From: Pseudomonadota bacterium
GTDB taxonomy: Bacteria > Myxococcota_A > UBA9042 > GCA-2863065
Length of the DNA: 54,056 bases
Direction: 5' to 3'
Assembly: GCA_002863065.1 (NCBI GenBank)
Contig: PKDL01000412.1
Coordinates: forward strand, 1-54,056
Position numbers and translations under genes: made by a program. How positions within the stretch are numbered: the first letter of the stretch is position 1; each line of letters begins with the position of its first letter. The notes below the pieces were generated by a model, which was given only the letters and a program-made list of their open reading frames with translations, made no database searches and was not told the DNA's origin. Shown here piece by piece: positions 4,553-54,056 of this stretch.

Positions 4553-5950
4553 ATGGTGGTAGGGGTTCCGTTCTGGGACGCCACTACGACTGTGGCGGTG
4601 CAACAGGCGTGTGCGGCAGCGCGCGCTGGAGCAACCGCATACGTGCGAGTGCGTCTATCCTACCCGGGTATCGACCCATTCCAGGTACTCGGGCATTCCA
4701 CTGACCACACATTTGCTTGGTCCGACGGCACTCGTCGACTGACTCTGGTTGCCGGTCCAGCTGCCGCTATCATCGAACCGAGGAATGACGCCAATCTAGA
4801 GCAGCTTTGCCATGACCTTCGCGCATCGGTTCATGGTGACTTGTCTGGTCCGTTATTTTTCGGTGGTTGTGCTTTTTCGAGCAGTTCGAATTGGCCTGAT
4901 TGGCCACTTGCGCGATTCGTACTTCCCCAATGGCTGTTGATACGTGACGCCGACGGAGCAACAAATTGCTATCTCACCGTGCGAGTCCATGCCGGTGATA
5001 CGCAAGTCGACGTTCTGACCAAACTTCGCTCCGTGCTCCCTCCGCAGTCAGCGGAGCCGGACGGTCGCTCTGATGAGGGTTGCATACACGTCACCCCGGT
5101 AGAGTCTAAAGCGTCTTGGATGGAGAGAGTGGATGCGGCCGCAACCACGGTGGCTGAAGGGGCATTAGCGAAAGTCGTATTGGCTCGGGAAGTGCTTCTC
5201 ACTCCGCCAGAGGGATACCAGTTTGACGCTGGTTCTACACTCCGGCGTCTTAGGAAATTGCATTCAGGAAGCATCACATTTTCGATGCACATAGACGGTC
5301 ATGGCACTTTCCTCGGTGCGACACCAGAGACGTTGGTCGAAGTGCATGATACCGAGGTTCAGACGCATGCCCTGGCGGGTACCATTCGTCGCGGTTCGAC
5401 GGAAGAAGAGGATCAGCGGCTAGCTCAAGCCCTGTTTGAGAGTGCGAAAGATCGAGTAGAGCACCGGGTGGTGGTGGATGCGATGGTTGATACGCTCCGG
5501 CCATTGTGCTCAGAACTCGCGGTCTCCGAAGTTCCACACCCCATTCGTCTATCGCAGGTTCAGCATCTCGCAACCCCGATCGTCGGTCGTTTGAAAGCAC
5601 GGCAGAACGCGCTGACTCTGGCGCGATGTCTCCATCCTACGCCGGCAGTTGGTGGGTGGCCTCGCAGTTCGGCAGCGCAATATCTGGATGAACAAGAACC
5701 GACCCGGCGTGGTTGGTATGCCGCACCCATTGGATGGATGGACTCCGAGTTCCAGGGGGTTTTCGGCGTGGCGATTCGGTCTGCTTTGATCAGTCCAGAG
5801 TCAGCACGAGCCTGGGTCGGGGCTGGGATCGTGGGTGCATCCGACCCAGATGCAGAGTGGCGCGAGACCGCACTTAAGCTACGAACCATTGTCTCTGGTC
5901 TTGCCGTACGAAAACAGGATGACTCCACATTAGCGGGTGGCGACCAGTGA
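4553..5950 (+). CDS. menF: Isochorismate synthase
   Basis: Chorismate-binding C-terminal motifs KVVLAR, GATPETL, HALAGT, KDRVEH, QHLATPI, LHPTPAVGG, RGWYAAPIGW, VAIRSA, GAGIV; first gene of the men operon. Confidence 0.9.
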   Translation: MVVGVPFWDATTTVAVQQACAAARAGATAYVRVRLSYPGIDPFQVLGHSTDHTFAWSDGTRRLTLVAGPAAAIIEPRNDANLEQLCHDLRASVHGDLSGPLFFGGCAFSSSSNWPDWPLARFVLPQWLLIRDADGATNCYLTVRVHAGDTQVDVLTKLRSVLPPQSAEPDGRSDEGCIHVTPVESKASWMERVDAAATTVAEGALAKVVLAREVLLTPPEGYQFDAGSTLRRLRKLHSGSITFSMHIDGHGTFLGATPETLVEVHDTEVQTHALAGTIRRGSTEEEDQRLAQALFESAKDRVEHRVVVDAMVDTLRPLCSELAVSEVPHPIRLSQVQHLATPIVGRLKARQNALTLARCLHPTPAVGGWPRSSAAQYLDEQEPTRRGWYAAPIGWMDSEFQGVFGVAIRSALISPESARAWVGAGIVGASDPDAEWRETALKLRTIVSGLAVRKQDDSTLAGGDQ

Positions 5951-7608
5951 GCGGCAGCACGGCTACAGCGGACTGGAATGCAGGAGCGGCGAACCTCTTG
6001 CTGGAAACTCTGCGTGTCAACGGCGTTATGGATGCCGTGATATCGCCAGGCTCACGCAGCACTCCATTGGTGCTCGCAGCATCTCAATGTCTCTCTACGA
6101 CTGTCATCTTAGATGAGCGGGTGGCTGGCTTCTATGCCTTGGGTAAAGCGCGGCAGCGGGGTGCCTGCGCACTGATTTGTACCTCCGGGACAGCTGGTGC
6201 TCACTACTATCCTGCGGTTATTGAGGCCTCTCAAACTCGCACTCCGTTAGTGGTTCTCACGGCTGACCGTCCTCCTGAATTACAGGACTGCGGCGCACCG
6301 CAGACGATAAGACAGGATGGACTGTTCGGGTCCCATGTGCGGTACGCCCGGACAATACCCACGCCCGAATCAGCATCCAGCCTTCAGTCAGCATCCAACA
6401 TCGCTCTACGCGCGTTGTCGCATGCGTTTGGGTCGCCACCCGGTCCAGTCCATCTCAATGTGCCCTACCGGAAACCGCTGTGGAGCCCAGGTGCTACATC
6501 ACCCATCACGATCGAAGCAGGTCGTATTCATCGAAGGACGCCTGAAGGCGCGCCGAGCGGGTTACATCCTGTAGCTGCTGCATTAGCGCAGTCGGAACGT
6601 CCCGTCGTATACGTTGGACCTCATAGCCCGTCAGGAGCTGGTAGCGCAGCCCTAGAGCTGGGGCGTACCTTGTCGATACCGGTACTAACGGAGCTGGCCC
6701 CTCTGACCCACGATGTAGGTCATTTGGAGCTCTTGTTGCGTTCCCCAGCTGTGCGGGAGCACCTATCACCCGACCTCCTACTGCATGTGGGTCATGCTCC
6801 TATTGGGCGCCAAGTCCTACACTGGATGCAAGATTTGACCGCCACCCGGATCGGGCTCGACCCGGATGGGTGGACGCATTCACCGTCTGGACCGTTTGAG
6901 CTTCTATGGACCGGGGACGTTACAGGTGCATTGAGGCATCTCGCAGCTAACAGTCGGCCAAAAAGTCAGGCATGGGTCGGGTATTGGAAGCATGCAACAT
7001 CGATAGTATCCGCCGCGCTCGAAGGTACTCCTGAGGTGTTGGACGAGCGTTTTGTGGCTGCGACAATCTCATCGGTTCGCTCCGAGTTGCATATTGCGAG
7101 CTCCATGCCGATTCGGGACGTCGCAGCATTCGGGAGACCGAAAAGACCGACGTACTCACGAGGTGCGAACGGGATCGATGGGACGATATCGACGGCTTTA
7201 GGGTTGGGCGTAACCTCAGTACTCCTAGGTGACCTTGCGTTACGACATGATATCGGTGGCTTGGCGGCTGCGGTTGAGTTGGGTGCGGAGATGGATATCT
7301 TCTGCGTCGATAACTCTGGTGGGGGCATTTTTCACATGCTCCCCATTACGAAGCATGCGGACGTGTTTGAACGGTTTTTCGCGACACCTCAGTCGGTAGA
7401 CTTGTCACGGCTCGCTATGGGGGCTGGAGCGGAGACCATCATCGTAGATTCTCCCTCGGCACTTCGGGAAGTCGTACATTCGAAACCGAGTGGAGTCCGA
7501 GTGGTTATCATACGGGTAGACCGGACCGGCAGTGTTGCATCTCGCAGTGAAACGTCCTTGCGAGTCGTGCAAGCCCTCGAAGAGGAGGGAGCCGCATGGC
7601 GCAGGTAA
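5947..7608 (+). CDS. menD: SEPHCHC synthase (ThDP-dependent)
   Basis: ISPGSRSTPL, DERVAGFYALG, CTSGTAGAHYYPAVIEA, LTADRPPEL, RGANGIDGTIS, GDLALRHD, DNSGGGIF. GTGA overlap with the menF stop. Confidence 0.95.
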   Translation: MSGSTATADWNAGAANLLLETLRVNGVMDAVISPGSRSTPLVLAASQCLSTTVILDERVAGFYALGKARQRGACALICTSGTAGAHYYPAVIEASQTRTPLVVLTADRPPELQDCGAPQTIRQDGLFGSHVRYARTIPTPESASSLQSASNIALRALSHAFGSPPGPVHLNVPYRKPLWSPGATSPITIEAGRIHRRTPEGAPSGLHPVAAALAQSERPVVYVGPHSPSGAGSAALELGRTLSIPVLTELAPLTHDVGHLELLLRSPAVREHLSPDLLLHVGHAPIGRQVLHWMQDLTATRIGLDPDGWTHSPSGPFELLWTGDVTGALRHLAANSRPKSQAWVGYWKHATSIVSAALEGTPEVLDERFVAATISSVRSELHIASSMPIRDVAAFGRPKRPTYSRGANGIDGTISTALGLGVTSVLLGDLALRHDIGGLAAAVELGAEMDIFCVDNSGGGIFHMLPITKHADVFERFFATPQSVDLSRLAMGAGAETIIVDSPSALREVVHSKPSGVRVVIIRVDRTGSVASRSETSLRVVQALEEEGAAWRR

Positions 7609-49917: not shown

Positions 49918-52068
49918 CTAAAATTCGGCAGTCACACTAAGCTGTACATTGAGACCGGGTGCGTCAAAGCCCGAGCCATGTCTCCGATAGAGGCTATCGA
50001 ATACATTGGTGACTGCCAGATCTGTTCGAACGCTGGTTGAAAATCGATAGCCACCGCGTAGATCTGCGACGAGAAATCTCTTTGTACCATCGCATGGTGT
50101 TTGGAGCGTTCCCGAGTGTCGCGATTCTTCACAAATGCGAGCGTCTTTTTGATCTCCCGGAGACAGGGTTGTTTGTGGATTCGCGAATCGAGTACCGAAC
50201 TCAAAATACCACTTGCTTTCAGGCGCAGTGTATCGAACTCGCGCATTTCCAGAGAGTGGGGGGACGCGTCGTCCATTGACCGTAGTGCCATTGGAACCGG
50301 TATACGTATTTGTTATCCATGCGACCCCTCCAGCGACAAGCCATCGCCCAAAGCGGAGAGCCATGTCCCACTCCACTCCATGCGACTCTCCTCGTTCATT
50401 ATTCACGCGATGTGCCACACGCTTATTATCGATGGTGTCTTGACCCTGCCAGCTTGTGGCTTCTGACCCGATTGCATCTGACAGCATGGTGTAAAAATAT
50501 GCCGCTCGCATTTGCAATGGGCCAAGCTCGAGCTTGAACCCTGCTTCGATGGTATCGGTCCGCTCTGGTTCAAGCTCCGGGTTAGGGACCTCGAAGGTGG
50601 AACCAGTGTCACCTAGTACAGTGGTTTCCTGTAGGTTGGGTGCGCGAAATCCTTGTACGTATGTTGCATACATCGTCAGTGTATCTGGCAGTAATAACTC
50701 AAGACCAGCGCTTCCGACGATGCCGTTGAAATCGTATGCTACATCGCCGAGACCTGCTACGTCCGGGGCGAATGCGCTAAAGTAGGAGTACCTGATCCCT
50801 CCGAGGAGACGGAGCTGCACATCTTTCGAGGTGATATCCATCACCAATGCTTCGGCATGGGCATAGATCCCCAACGTAATGTACGTTGAGCCGTCAGAAA
50901 AATTTCCCCGTGTATTGGTTGTCCAGTCGAAGTTCGGTGCGCGGGCGTCCTGTCTATTGGATTGCACCATGTCATAGTAAGTATCGAGTCCAGTGCGGAG
51001 TGATACTCGTTTTTCCCAGACGCTGAGGCCTACCTCCAAGTCCGCACCTACCGTATCGGTGATGTCTTCATTGGCTCTTTTTTTGGTCACGGTGTTGAGA
51101 GATCGTGCTGCACAAGCCGCCCGATCACGAACAGTAGTCCCATTGAGGGTACAATTGAATCGGGAGACGTCTTCAACAAGACGCTGATAGCTCGCCGTGA
51201 TGCGGATGTGGTCAACAATGCCGTTACCCCATTCGAAGCGGGTATAAAGTAAGTGGTCATCATTGTCGTAAAGGCGTGTCTCGCCCATACCCAATCCGTC
51301 TGTTCTGCCGGCATTACGCATCAACATGCCAAAGTAGCCGAGTGAAACTGACCAGCGGTCTGGTGCGTAAAGAAGCTTTGCGCGCCAGTATCCTGCATCA
51401 TAGTCTGAGAGTGGCCAGGAACTTCCGTCGCCTACTCTCAGAGTGCCGAAATGATCAAAGGTACCGCCGAGCAGGAAACCAAAGTCATCGTAGGCACCTG
51501 TAAACATGAGAGTCGACCCGGCCGAGAGGTCGGCGGAAGCAAATCGCCCCCGCACCCGGCCTTGGTACTCGAAATTATCGTCAGCCTCGATAGGGACATC
51601 CGTGAGCATATTGATTACGCCACCGATAGCCCCGTTGCCGTAGAGTACGGACGATGCCCCACGGACTATTTCAATTCGGGATAGTGCATTGGGGTCTATT
51701 AGAGCCAGGTATTGATTGGGTCCCGTGCGATGCGTCGAGCTAGTGAGTCGAACGCCATCGACCAGTAGGAGATTTTGTGGGCCTACAAATCCGCGGATGA
51801 TAGGGGCGCCTGCACCGCGATTGGTTTGCTGCACATGAATACCTGTCTCATAGTCGAGTGCTTCAGGTACCGTTCTCGCTTGGAGTTCTTGTAGCCGTGT
51901 TGCCGATATGATGTTTAGAGAGCGCCCGGTTTCTAATGGGGTCCTCGCCAATCGGTTTGGCGTTACTATTACTGGGGTAAGCGTGTCGGGGTCGTCAGTC
52001 GGCGGAACAGCCCAGCATATGCTGGGACAGCACATCAGCATTATGAAGATTTGCTGTGAACATCGCAC
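49918..52068 (-). CDS. TonB-dependent receptor
   Basis: Signal peptide, TonB box (DTLTPVIVT), plug (IIRG..NLLLVDGVR..RIEIVRGASSVLYGNGAIGGVIN), barrel (QGFRAP, LEPE, NVFD..Y) and C-terminal F. Confidence 0.95.
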   Translation of the reverse strand: MRCSQQIFIMLMCCPSICWAVPPTDDPDTLTPVIVTPNRLARTPLETGRSLNIISATRLQELQARTVPEALDYETGIHVQQTNRGAGAPIIRGFVGPQNLLLVDGVRLTSSTHRTGPNQYLALIDPNALSRIEIVRGASSVLYGNGAIGGVINMLTDVPIEADDNFEYQGRVRGRFASADLSAGSTLMFTGAYDDFGFLLGGTFDHFGTLRVGDGSSWPLSDYDAGYWRAKLLYAPDRWSVSLGYFGMLMRNAGRTDGLGMGETRLYDNDDHLLYTRFEWGNGIVDHIRITASYQRLVEDVSRFNCTLNGTTVRDRAACAARSLNTVTKKRANEDITDTVGADLEVGLSVWEKRVSLRTGLDTYYDMVQSNRQDARAPNFDWTTNTRGNFSDGSTYITLGIYAHAEALVMDITSKDVQLRLLGGIRYSYFSAFAPDVAGLGDVAYDFNGIVGSAGLELLLPDTLTMYATYVQGFRAPNLQETTVLGDTGSTFEVPNPELEPERTDTIEAGFKLELGPLQMRAAYFYTMLSDAIGSEATSWQGQDTIDNKRVAHRVNNERGESHGVEWDMALRFGRWLVAGGVAWITNTYTGSNGTTVNGRRVPPLSGNARVRYTAPESKWYFEFGTRFANPQTTLSPGDQKDARICEESRHSGTLQTPCDGTKRFLVADLRGGYRFSTSVRTDLAVTNVFDSLYRRHGSGFDAPGLNVQLSVTAEF

Positions 52069-52099: not shown

Positions 52100-53440
52100 T
52101 TATCGTAGTCGATGCCGCCTTATGTCCCCGCTGCCAGGTGATTTTTGAAGTCGGATGCGCAGACTTTCTGGAGTTGATAGTCCAGGATCGTTACGTTGTG
52201 CTGCGAGTACAAGTGGGAGTGGTACGCCACCGATGGTAGTGTCGACGTCATTCGGCATTGGCTCGACGACGATACGATATTCGCCGTGATCAAACGGTAA
52301 ACCGGGTGCGACGCTGACTTGTTCTACCCGCTCACGCAGACCTTGTTTTTCGAATTCCATCGCACGATGAATGCAATAGGGATTGTTTCCTGGTCGCCCG
52401 AGCAGGCTACTAGAAGTCCAAGTACATCCTCCACGACAAATGTCCGCGTAGTAACAAGTCTGGCAGAAACCCCAGAGGTCGTTCCGAGTACGCTGGCGGA
52501 TGTGATTTATTTCAGGAGCGTGCTCAACCATATCTATGATAGGCCGGTCTAACACGTTGCCGCCCGAGTAGGTTTTGGTGGCTAAAGACGGACAGCCCTT
52601 CAGGGTCCCGTCGGCTTCAATGCCGAGACCCATGGAGCCCGCTGGACACCCGCGCCAATGTGCACCGGTATCACCATGATAACGAAGACGCTCTTCATAA
52701 GGAGAGAAGAACCCAACATTGTTTCCTGGGAACAGGCGGATTCCGTTCGGTTCGAGCTTGTGCTCCTTTATCCAGACCAACAATGGGAAAAGTTCGAGCA
52801 ACTCATACGGCTGCAGGAGCATGTCTGGCCTGTCAGCTGCTCTGCCCATAGCTACCGTGATCTGGACCTGCCAGGCTTTCGAGCCGATCTCTACCATCGT
52901 GTCCGCAACTGCGGGTAGTTCGGGTAATGACAGTCGGTTGACTTGAGTGTTTGTTGCTAGCCGTATCGGGCTTTTAGCGACGCGCTTTGCTGCCTCTACT
53001 GCACTCCGCCACGAACCTTTCACGCCGCGTTGAGCATCGTGCGTCTCCTCTAATCCATCGAGAGAAATGGAGATGGACCGCAGCCCAGCTTTGACAGCTA
53101 AGTCGAGCCTTTCCTGAGTCAGTCCGCGTGCGCCGGTTGTCATGCTGCACGCCATGCCACGGTCTGTAATTCGCTTAGCGATTAGCGGCCAATCATCTCG
53201 TAGGTACGCTTCACCACCAATGATTGTTACTTCGCGGGTACCAGCCTCAGCCAACTGGTCAATGACTCCGTAACACTCCTCGAGTGTCAGTTCTTGTGCC
53301 CTCGGTTTGCCTGCCCGGGATCCACAGGTTTTGCATCCCAGGTCACACTTTAAAGTAAGCTCCCAAACCACATATACGGGAGTCGGTCTCTTAAAGTCCT
53401 GGTCAGTAGGCGTGCGAACGAGATCACGAGTGCCCGCCAT
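52100..53440 (-). CDS. PlpX-like radical SAM/SPASM maturase (splicease family; TIGR04103/TIGR03913-like)
   Basis: VVWELTLKCDLGCKTCGSRAGK..EL, IIGGEAYLRDDW, WQVQITVAMGRAAD, GNNVGFF, and SPASM WRGCPAG..LGIEADGTLKGCPSL..LWGFCQTCYYADICRGGCTWT..GNNPYCIHRA, all characteristic of PlpX-type enzymes. Confidence 0.85.
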   Translation of the reverse strand: MAGTRDLVRTPTDQDFKRPTPVYVVWELTLKCDLGCKTCGSRAGKPRAQELTLEECYGVIDQLAEAGTREVTIIGGEAYLRDDWPLIAKRITDRGMACSMTTGARGLTQERLDLAVKAGLRSISISLDGLEETHDAQRGVKGSWRSAVEAAKRVAKSPIRLATNTQVNRLSLPELPAVADTMVEIGSKAWQVQITVAMGRAADRPDMLLQPYELLELFPLLVWIKEHKLEPNGIRLFPGNNVGFFSPYEERLRYHGDTGAHWRGCPAGSMGLGIEADGTLKGCPSLATKTYSGGNVLDRPIIDMVEHAPEINHIRQRTRNDLWGFCQTCYYADICRGGCTWTSSSLLGRPGNNPYCIHRAMEFEKQGLRERVEQVSVAPGLPFDHGEYRIVVEPMPNDVDTTIGGVPLPLVLAAQRNDPGLSTPESLRIRLQKSPGSGDIRRHRLR

Positions 53441-53445
53441 GTCAG

Positions 53446-54056
53446 TTAGCTCTCCATCGAATCGGTCGCATCGGACGTATCAACCCCAGGTGCGCCATAC
53501 AGAGGTTGGGGTGGAGGCTCGGTGCCATCCGTTGTGTCTATCGAATCCGTCGCGTCTGCGCCGGTATCCGTCGCGTCTGCGCCGGTATCCGTCGCGTCTG
53601 CGCCGGTATCCGTCGCGTCTGTACCGGTATCCGTCGCGTCTGCGCCGGTATCCGTCGCGTCTGTACCGGTATCCTTGCCGTCAGATTCAGTCGCAGCTCC
53701 ATCGCTGCCGTCAGATTCGTCACCTTCATCGATGCCGGGTCCACCGTAATCCATCTCGCTCGCGGATTCGGTGCCTTCTGTGAAGTCTATTCCTTCAGCA
53801 AAGCTTAGTGAGATTTCTTCGTTTGAAACATCACTAATCGTAGCTAATGAAAGCTCACGATTACGCATTGAAAAACGTTGCTGATTCGAAGTTGACCTAC
53901 TTCGTGAAGTTTGCGACGAATTTGTTTCCGAACGTGCGCGACTTCGTGCCGCGTAACGTTCCGGATGCATCGATAAGATACTTCTTGGACTTTGTCCGGA
54001 ATTAGTACTAGAGTATATATTGTTTTGAACGGAAAAATCAATATCTTCAGTTTCAT
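53446..54056 (-). CDS. Acidic repeat protein with DYG and LYG motifs; probable splicease substrate (5' end uncertain or beyond the window)
   Basis: Its stop lies 5 nt before the rSAM start. Encodes SEMDYGGPG..(DTG[A/T]DAT)6..PPPQPLYGAPG. The frame has no stop up to base 54056; internal ATGs at 53970 and 53868. Confidence 0.75.
   Translation of the reverse strand, partial: ETEDIDFSVQNNIYSSTNSGQSPRSILSMHPERYAARSRARSETNSSQTSRSRSTSNQQRFSMRNRELSLATISDVSNEEISLSFAEGIDFTEGTESASEMDYGGPGIDEGDESDGSDGAATESDGKDTGTDATDTGADATDTGTDATDTGADATDTGADATDTGADATDSIDTTDGTEPPPQPLYGAPGVDTSDATDSMES
53545..53674. repeat. 6.2 copies of a 21-bp in-frame tandem repeat
   Basis: ATCCGTCGCGTCTG(CG/TA)CCGGT x6 plus ATCC; encodes DTG(A/T)DAT on the minus strand. 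Confidence 0.97.

Follow-up and report, generated by a model that had tools for sequence, protein, structure and literature searches.

A probable spliceotide-type lipoprotein precursor encoded beside a PlpX-type radical SAM/SPASM enzyme in a marine metagenome-assembled genome

We find that the end of a marine metagenomic contig carries the 3' two-fifths (positions 53446-53796) of the gene for a substrate protein that is probably a spliceotide-type precursor of the adjacent PlpX-type radical SAM/SPASM enzyme, and that this precursor is probably exported and lipid-anchored. Foreign DNA, which does not belong to the precursor gene, makes up the final 260 bases of the contig (53797-54056). Directly visible in the sequence are the pairing and close coupling of the two genes, the native architecture of the precursor, and the conserved Tyr-Gly (YG), zinc-ribbon and lipobox residues. 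The locus also has two elements of a spliceotide system, namely a PlpX-homologous radical SAM/SPASM enzyme and an adjacent precursor with conserved x-Tyr-Gly sites. Spliceases install beta-amino-acid ketoamides in ribosomal products and are under development as protein-engineering tools; to our knowledge, their native products and biological roles are largely unknown. It has been previously reported that these enzymes act at XYG motifs and that alpha-keto-beta-amino acids result (PMC11414181, PMC10849128).

An initial annotation, made from the contig sequence alone, had described two YG sites bracketing an acidic heptad spacer. This description holds for 53446-53796 but fails for 53797-54056. 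The interpretation built on it is partly supported. It identified the correct kind of protein, a splicease substrate in which YG-x-P motifs are fixed and the acidic, disordered spacer is prone to slippage. The zinc ribbon and the lipobox, from which most can be learned about the architecture, lie outside the sequence that was available to it.

Results

Gene order and coupling of the precursor to the enzyme

The window, by which we mean the whole stretch of DNA analyzed, is the entire 54,056-bp contig C3 of a marine metagenome-assembled genome (MAG; 578 contigs, 53.9% GC), whose same-family GTDB relatives were identified by genome search as Myxococcales/Myxococcota MAGs. Three consecutive genes lie on its minus strand: the open reading frame (ORF) of the precursor, a radical SAM/SPASM gene and a gene for a TonB-dependent receptor (Table 1). 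The precursor stop codon (53446-53448) is separated by 5 nt from the radical SAM ATG at 53440, and a metatranscriptome contig (X10) covers 53300-53586, that is, the 3' end of the precursor and the 5' end of the enzyme. This suggests that the two genes are co-transcribed in situ, with DNA carry-over in the RNA contig being a possible alternative source.

Table 1. Positions of features in the window.
Feature	Position	Strand	Basis or remark
TonB-dependent receptor	49918..52068	-	31 nt downstream of the enzyme; context only
Radical SAM/SPASM enzyme, PlpX (tyramine splicease) superfamily	52100..53440	-	TIGR04103, TIGR03913, Pfam Radical_SAM and SPASM, tree
Precursor ORF as it stands in the window	53446..>54056	-	open to the contig end; stop at 53446-53448
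Authentic 3' part of the precursor (last 116 codons and stop)	53446..53796	-	97-99% identity to L022 3887-4352 outside the scaffold gap
LYGAP, predicted splice site, X = Leu	53488..53502	-	fits the family consensus P-x-Y-G-x-P
Six 21-bp units, (DTG[T/A]DAT)6, order T-A-T-A-A-A	53545..53674	-	TRF
DYGGP, predicted splice site, X = Asp	53737..53751	-	second copy of a 78-nt tandem duplication; the first is missing from the window
18-nt overlap gaaggaatagacttcaca, encoding EGIDFT	53779..53796	-	common to the native gene and the foreign sequence; junction inside
Foreign tail joined by misassembly	53797..54056	.	GC, run distribution, absence from L022

In this species, both assemblies have the TonB-dependent receptor gene 3' of the enzyme (49918-52068 in the window and 5763-7427 on the TARA scaffold L022 described below), and it is not conserved beside the cassette in other genera. 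No conserved third gene (protease, exporter or RRE) accompanies the pair among 62 flanking ORFs of 30-32 related loci, and the absence of a conserved dedicated protease or exporter fits the use of the general lipoprotein pathway. A PlpY-like small partner gene was found neither between nor beside the two genes, and a genome scan of the MAG for further genes combining zinc ribbon, lipobox and YG sites returned none.

The enzyme is a predicted member of the splicease superfamily

The enzyme matched two splicease-related models over their full length: TIGR04103, the nif11-class peptide radical SAM maturase 3 of PlpX type (E-value 2.1e-143; 478 bits; enzyme residues 23-396 aligned to profile positions 6-382 of 412), and TIGR03913, the GDL-motif peptide maturase (E-value 6.7e-139; 463 bits). 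The next family reached just 160 bits. Both scores fall below the curated cutoffs, which are 725 bits for TIGR04103 and 592 bits for TIGR03913, and the enzyme may therefore not be isofunctional with either model; assignment to the GDL system in particular is contradicted by the score (463 against 591.75 bits) and by the precursor having no GDL motif. Relatives of the enzyme are encoded in at least 597 species genomes, and a maximum-likelihood tree placed it within a clade of 35 enzymes (support 99/89). Judged from these profile matches and this tree, the enzyme appears to be a splicease-superfamily member from a distinct clade for which there is no curated model. A search of the PDB returned no splicease structure; the best matches, SkfB and PqqE, covered the radical SAM core only.

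In an Arenibaculum sp. MAG (L051:3330-4847), the enzyme carries at its N-terminus, as an in-frame fusion, the zinc ribbon of the precursor family (CPGC..CPFC) with a remnant of the hydrophobic segment. This protein has neither the lipobox Cys nor the YG tail, and it is possibly a natural leader-enzyme fusion.

Tyr-Gly sites are the fixed element of a precursor family

Precursors with a zinc ribbon and YG sites are encoded directly upstream of the enzyme in 31 of the 35 loci of the enzyme clade; among the best 80 loci overall, zinc-ribbon precursors occupy this position in 33. In the tails of 45 related Myxococcota precursors, Gly comes next after 106 of 116 tyrosines, yet it makes up only ~10% of the tail residues. 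The sites follow the consensus P-[LAEPVD]-Y-G-[ILAVGM]-P-P-[DPSE], there are 1-5 of them per protein, and the final one usually lies 6-11 residues from the C-terminus. The spacers between them are hypervariable, share no common sequence and often consist of lineage-specific tandem oligopeptide repeats (DAGTT, DTGTS, PDAAPT, DDTGAI), and close relatives gain or lose whole YG-bearing units, as seen when L001 is compared with L005. The initial annotation had proposed that homologues might vary in repeat length while YGxP stays fixed, and the family bears this out: YG-x-P is fixed, and the spacers are free in both length and sequence. In L001 (3774-5986) and L005, a tandem array of three or four precursor paralogues precedes a single enzyme gene. 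Cultured hosts of the gene pair include Lujinxingia vulgaris TMQ2 (locus L034), whose precursor has one YG site.

More distant enzyme clades adjoin other xYG proteins, including GDL-motif peptides with P-x-Y-G, hydrophobic IYG/MYG proteins and YGAPPD-rich proteins. In a sister enzyme clade from Polyangia and Planctomycetia, YG-rich xYG[AG]PP[D] proteins are encoded downstream of the enzyme rather than upstream (L069:4755-5988, L058:3547-4248, L082:4607-5176 and L101:1455-1859). Four Acidobacteriota loci (L073, L081, L097 and L100) encode GDL-motif peptides ~100-400 nt upstream of TIGR03913 enzymes, all with P-x-Y-G just before the GDL helix, which fits their also being splicease substrates.

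These data bear on whether the enzyme splices at all. It could instead alter the Tyr-Gly sites in another way, such as Tyr crosslinking, epimerisation or C-H functionalisation, and give a product without a ketoamide. SPASM enzymes are chemically diverse, and both the shortfall from the trusted cutoffs and the separate clade of this enzyme leave room for such chemistry. On the other hand, its full-length match to the splicease models is ~3 times stronger than that to any other family, and the strict conservation of Gly after Tyr is a hallmark of splicease substrates. Furthermore, 27 confirmed splicease-substrate pairs have been described among the YG-rich neighbors of PlpX-like enzymes in 189 genera (Scott et al., as relayed by the review PMC10849128). 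We therefore consider non-splicing chemistry unlikely and favor tyramine excision as the predicted activity.

The native precursor combines a zinc ribbon, a lipobox and an acidic tail

The enzyme sequence of the window itself matched no contig in the records consulted, from which this genome or near ones may be left out. The 90% protein cluster of the enzyme, however, contains a 99%-identical ENA member, and this led to the native locus on TARA scaffold L022. The enzyme encoded there is identical to that of the window at 445 of 446 residues, and the whole locus is contained on this scaffold. L022 joins MAG contig C233 to the window contig across ~908 nt that are missing from the MAG, and the true upstream sequence of the precursor was found nowhere in the MAG. 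Contig C233 (1-2978), which adjoins the window end, includes a gene for a B12-binding radical SAM protein whose transcription is divergent.

On L022, the precursor gene is preceded by the ribosome-binding site GGAGGAG and encodes a protein of at least ~262 residues, which reads MVKKIYVSRHGFTACPACGNHMKLSAIKEETVCPFCNTHIMTSLEAEGEGLVKKAARALMVGKSGILAASLLGATAFAS/CSSDDD..(TDQTDG)n..FDEIDVVEGTESASEMDYGGPGIDDGEAEGIDFTEGTESASEMDYGGPGIDEGDES..KDTGTDAMDTGADATDTGADATDTGA[100 N]TDTGADATDTGADATDTGADATDSIDTTDGTEPPPQPLYGAPGVDTSDATDSMES (the slash precedes the lipobox Cys). Five parts can be distinguished: an N-terminal Cys4 zinc ribbon (CPAC..CPFC) with an invariant His; a basic helix and a hydrophobic segment that ends in the lipobox AFAS/C80; a polyanionic disordered tail beginning with TDQTDG repeats; two tandem EGTESASEMDYGGPGID units (DYGGPG) followed by the DTGxDAT heptad array; and the C-terminal site PQPLYGAPG. 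The native protein has three Tyr-Gly sites, two DYG and one LYG, where one or two had been proposed from the contig. The duplication of the DYG unit is 78 nt long and in tandem, and it was recovered in frame in runs X2, X3, X4, X5 and X9 (..TDQFDEIDVV-EGTESASEMDYGGPGIDEG-EA-EGIDFTEGTESASEMDYGGPG..). Related sites occur elsewhere in the family, as DYGGPGF in L017 and DYG in L021. The terminal LYGAP is preceded by PPPQP and lies 17 residues from the C-terminus. No exact match to the DYG unit was found when JGI metagenome contigs were scanned for its pattern. The window ORF likewise had no match among 5.8 billion proteins in a word-indexed search, in which low-complexity words swamped the candidates.

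AlphaFold2, run on the family alignment, predicted a confident zinc ribbon for residues 1-40 (pLDDT 81-91), a helical region of moderate confidence for residues 40-74 and no secondary structure in the tail (pLDDT 45-57). The tail is >180 residues long and contains 31% D+E and 1% K+R, and the earlier description of a polyanionic, probably disordered spacer agrees with both its composition and the model. Searches of the native N-terminus against Pfam and NCBIfam gave sub-threshold, generic zinc-ribbon matches only and no precursor family; a Nif11 or NHLP leader was likewise not matched in NCBIfam or Pfam.

The initial annotation had suggested looking for a signal peptide in the upstream sequence, and L022 supplies a hydrophobic segment with the lipobox Cys80 behind the zinc ribbon. 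The sequence ..ILAASLLGATAFAS/C follows an uncharged hydrophobic stretch, as in a lipoprotein signal. In such signals, the Cys usually lies within residues 15-35; here, it is found at residue 80, behind the ribbon, and not at the extreme N-terminus. Across the family its position ranges from 46 to 108. The PROSITE lipobox pattern is matched at this Cys in 38 of 47 family sequences, and C80 is invariant in 28 aligned precursors together with the ribbon residues C15, C18, H21, C33 and C36.

A lipobox so far outside the usual 15-35 window, with a folded ribbon ahead of the signal peptide, is unusual, and the segment could instead be an uncleaved signal anchor. The precursor would then be a permanent bitopic membrane protein with a cytoplasmic ribbon and a YG-x-PP tail that is periplasmic or never exported. 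The distance of the Cys from the N-terminus (46-108 residues), the 9 of 47 sequences that miss the strict lipobox pattern and a paralogue without the Cys (L001_c) speak for such a topology. Yet the Cys is invariant in the 28 aligned sequences and has small residues at -1 and -2, canonical lipoproteins of this genome carry post-lipobox linkers whose composition is that of the tail, and in some family members the first YG comes right after the Cys (C-AYG-xPP). A bitopic protein is thus improbable in our judgment, and we retain lipid anchoring as the predicted fate of the precursor.

The heptad array resembles a generic lipoprotein linker

Tandem Repeats Finder (TRF) reported a 21-bp unit in 6.2 copies at 53545-53674 (94% matches; score 232), and reading the units on the minus strand gave the order T-A-T-A-A-A between DYGGP and LYGAP, exactly as first described. 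What had been taken for a decayed copy after LYG, DTSDATDS, is a weak resemblance within a generally D/T-rich tail. The corresponding array on L022 has a different unit order (T-A-A-A...A-A-A) and contains a 100-N gap that the scaffolder left unclosed.

We estimated copy number from unitigs at k = 31, where identical 21-bp units collapse to a 51-nt cycle unitig whose depth relative to the unique flank gives the number of cycle traversals. The window structure predicts a cycle/flank depth ratio of 2.71, in agreement with the 2.6 obtained for X1. Ratios elsewhere were 1.0 (X7), 1.3 (X4), 1.5 (X9), ~2.2 (X3), 4.0 (X6), 6.8 (X5) and up to ~10 (X2). Together with the scaffold gap in L022, these noisy unitig depths, taken at 2-8x coverage, suggest that heptad copy number varies between samples. 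The proposal that the repeat is slippage-prone is borne out to this extent, with the low coverage keeping the depth ratios from being decisive.

A tblastn search with the ORF found acidic repeats on >60 contigs of the MAG. In 10 of 12 MAG ORFs that were opened, the repeats come immediately after an N-terminal lipobox Cys, and in an eleventh they form the C-terminal end of a lipoprotein. Predicted lipoproteins with long (D-[AT]-T-D-x)n repeats are encoded on contigs C13, C20, C338, C449, C332, C5, C59, C145 and C1. Placed mostly right after the lipobox Cys, such repeats look like a genome-wide tether style. Since many ordinary lipoproteins of the genome have such D/T-rich repeats behind their lipobox, the heptad array is best read as the generic lipoprotein tether of this organism, not specific to this substrate. 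The suggestion of tunable warhead spacing accordingly gives way to that of a drifting linker. A Ca2+-binding function, which had also been considered, was rejected: no Pfam or NCBIfam profile matched the precursor, those of RTX, EF-hand and TSP3 repeats included, and the heptad resembles the generic linkers.

The 5' end of the window ORF is an assembly chimera

Contigs of public sequencing runs interrupt the window at 53778-53796. L022 agrees with the window up to position 53796, and the contigs of the foreign sequence agree with it from 53779 upward. The sources of the tail and of the precursor have just these 18 nt (53779-53796) in common, and the tail is foreign. Its GC content is 39-47%, against 54% for the genome, and it is missing from L022. 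In DNA runs X2, X3, X4, X5 and X9, position 53796 is linked to 53720 via 4 letters, and upstream of 53778 four of these (X2, X4, X5 and X9) continue in a manner unlike the window. Conversely, RNA runs X11, X12 and X14 and DNA run X18 contain 53779-53946 with a different continuation below 53779. The precursor/enzyme part occurs alone in eight runs (X2-X9) and the tail alone in five (X11, X12, X14, X15 and X18); only X1, the likely source sample, contains both, with depths of 2 for the tail (53839-53997) and 2.6 for the precursor. No unitig crosses the junction in any of the 16 runs compared with the window, X1 included. The AT-rich tail was seen without the precursor in seawater metatranscriptomes X11, X12, X14 and X25 and in DNA runs X15 and X18, where it continues as ..AEGIDFT/LGLHNCGTGP.

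The foreign tail holds ATG 53868, ATG 53970 and the MRNRELSL..SNEEI segment, all of which therefore lie outside the precursor gene. The frame is indeed open to the window edge, as had been noted; the alternative of a protein of >200 aa was an artefact of the join, the proposed start of a 140-aa protein at ATG 53868 falls in chimeric sequence, and the ELSxEEL-like leader is inside foreign DNA. It is highly improbable that the window is correct as assembled and that the source strain has a precursor with a zinc-ribbon-less N-terminus and such a leader: although X1 holds both parts and the frame is open across the junction, no unitig in the 16 runs spans it, the holders of tail and precursor are otherwise disjoint, GC falls by ~10 points in the tail, contig C233 abuts the missing native segment just as in L022, and all 34 relatives in the enzyme clade with available sequence have the zinc-ribbon type. 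The first 87 codons of the window ORF are thus an assembly chimera, and annotation or gene synthesis from the MAG sequence would be wrong.

Discussion

The initial annotation had read the ORF as encoding a substrate, and this reading is supported, the partner being the tightly coupled gene of the PlpX-like radical SAM enzyme. By homology, YG statistics and the literature, the enzyme would act in the cytoplasm, excising a tyramine equivalent at each x-Tyr-Gly site to leave alpha-keto-beta-amino acid (ketoamide) residues. Binary splicease systems have been reported to need a leader helix (PMC11414181). Because of the parallel with this helix, we propose that the zinc ribbon and helix serve as a docking or activating leader, and the L051 fusion hints in the same direction. 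The hydrophobic segment and lipobox would then route the modified protein via Sec, Lgt and LspA; as the motif suggests, this processing would remove the ribbon and leave a lipid-anchored acidic tether with three electrophilic warheads. RiPP-lipoprotein hybrids are known to exist (PMC13056109). Within the precursor, the heptad array would be a species-typical lipoprotein linker with a copy number drifting by slippage; the DYG unit, too, is duplicated.

It has been shown that the Rheinheimera splicease RcsX left a DYG site unmodified (PMC11626197). By analogy, this result counts against splicing of two of the three native sites, both of which are DYG. Spliceotides have also been found to inhibit proteases (PMC11626197), and a speculative role for the present product, by analogy with those characterized, would be the trapping of Ser/Cys proteases at the envelope.

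A broader interpretation, which we put forward tentatively, is that the family constitutes a widespread class of lipid-anchored spliceotides in Myxococcota. The ribbon would be a detachable splicease docking and activation module that is cut off by LspA, and the product would be a polyanionic brush, borne by the envelope or by vesicles, whose 1-5 ketoamide warheads trap proteases, the number of warheads and the length of the tether evolving by tandem duplication and slippage. The myxococcotal hosts of the cassette are predatory bacteria. If true, this interpretation would bring backbone splicing together with RiPP-lipoprotein hybrids, both of them recent ideas, in a two-gene cassette that occurs in many uncultured Myxococcota and in a few cultured ones, and it would suggest the membrane or the surface as the location of the product. 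The family would also represent a natural multi-site, leader-detachable substrate format. This type of precursor may already be among the splicease types of Scott et al. 2022 (Chem 8:2659).

Comparison with known systems

The closest likeness by enzyme is to the type I spliceotides of Pleurocapsa (PlpA/PcpA with PlpX/PcpX and PlpY/PcpY), described by Morinaka et al. 2018, as summarized in PMC11414181. The enzymes belong to the same superfamily (TIGR04103, 2e-143), the precursor gene lies directly upstream of the enzyme gene and at least one x-Tyr-Gly site is present; PcpA likewise has two sites. Unlike these systems, the present locus has no PlpY-like gene and no Nif11/NHLP leader, and it is set apart by the zinc ribbon and lipobox signal, the long acidic low-complexity core and an enzyme below the equivalog cutoff.

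By gene content, the locus resembles the binary (type II) systems RhaA/RhaX and RcsA/RasA of Rheinheimera (PMC11414181, PMC11626197), which consist of two genes without a Y protein, contain LYG and DYG motifs and have a precursor whose N-terminal part is thought to activate the enzyme. Their products are protease inhibitors, from which the role of the present precursor is proposed by analogy. In contrast to the present locus, the Rheinheimera systems make short secreted peptides with disulfide cores, are accompanied by exporter and peptidase genes, and do not process the DYG of RcsA; here, the tail exceeds 180 residues, the signal is of lipoprotein type and there is no dedicated exporter.

In its predicted route of maturation, the precursor is similar to the DAG-RiPPs (DybA/DybH, PMC13056109), with cytoplasmic modification, a lipobox signal as leader, the general lipoprotein pathway and no dedicated protease, features that are known for DybA/DybH and proposed here. 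The DAG-RiPPs differ in that they use MNIO enzymes and carry the signal peptide at the very N-terminus without a zinc ribbon, and lipidation, predicted here, has been demonstrated there. Finally, the GDL-motif peptides share with the present system a sister enzyme family (TIGR03913 maturase; 463 bits) and a P-x-Y-G site (PPYGEAIRG..GDA, IPLYGVAI..SGDL), whereas they are short and helical, have no zinc ribbon, lipobox or acidic tail, and go with a separate Acidobacteriota enzyme clade.
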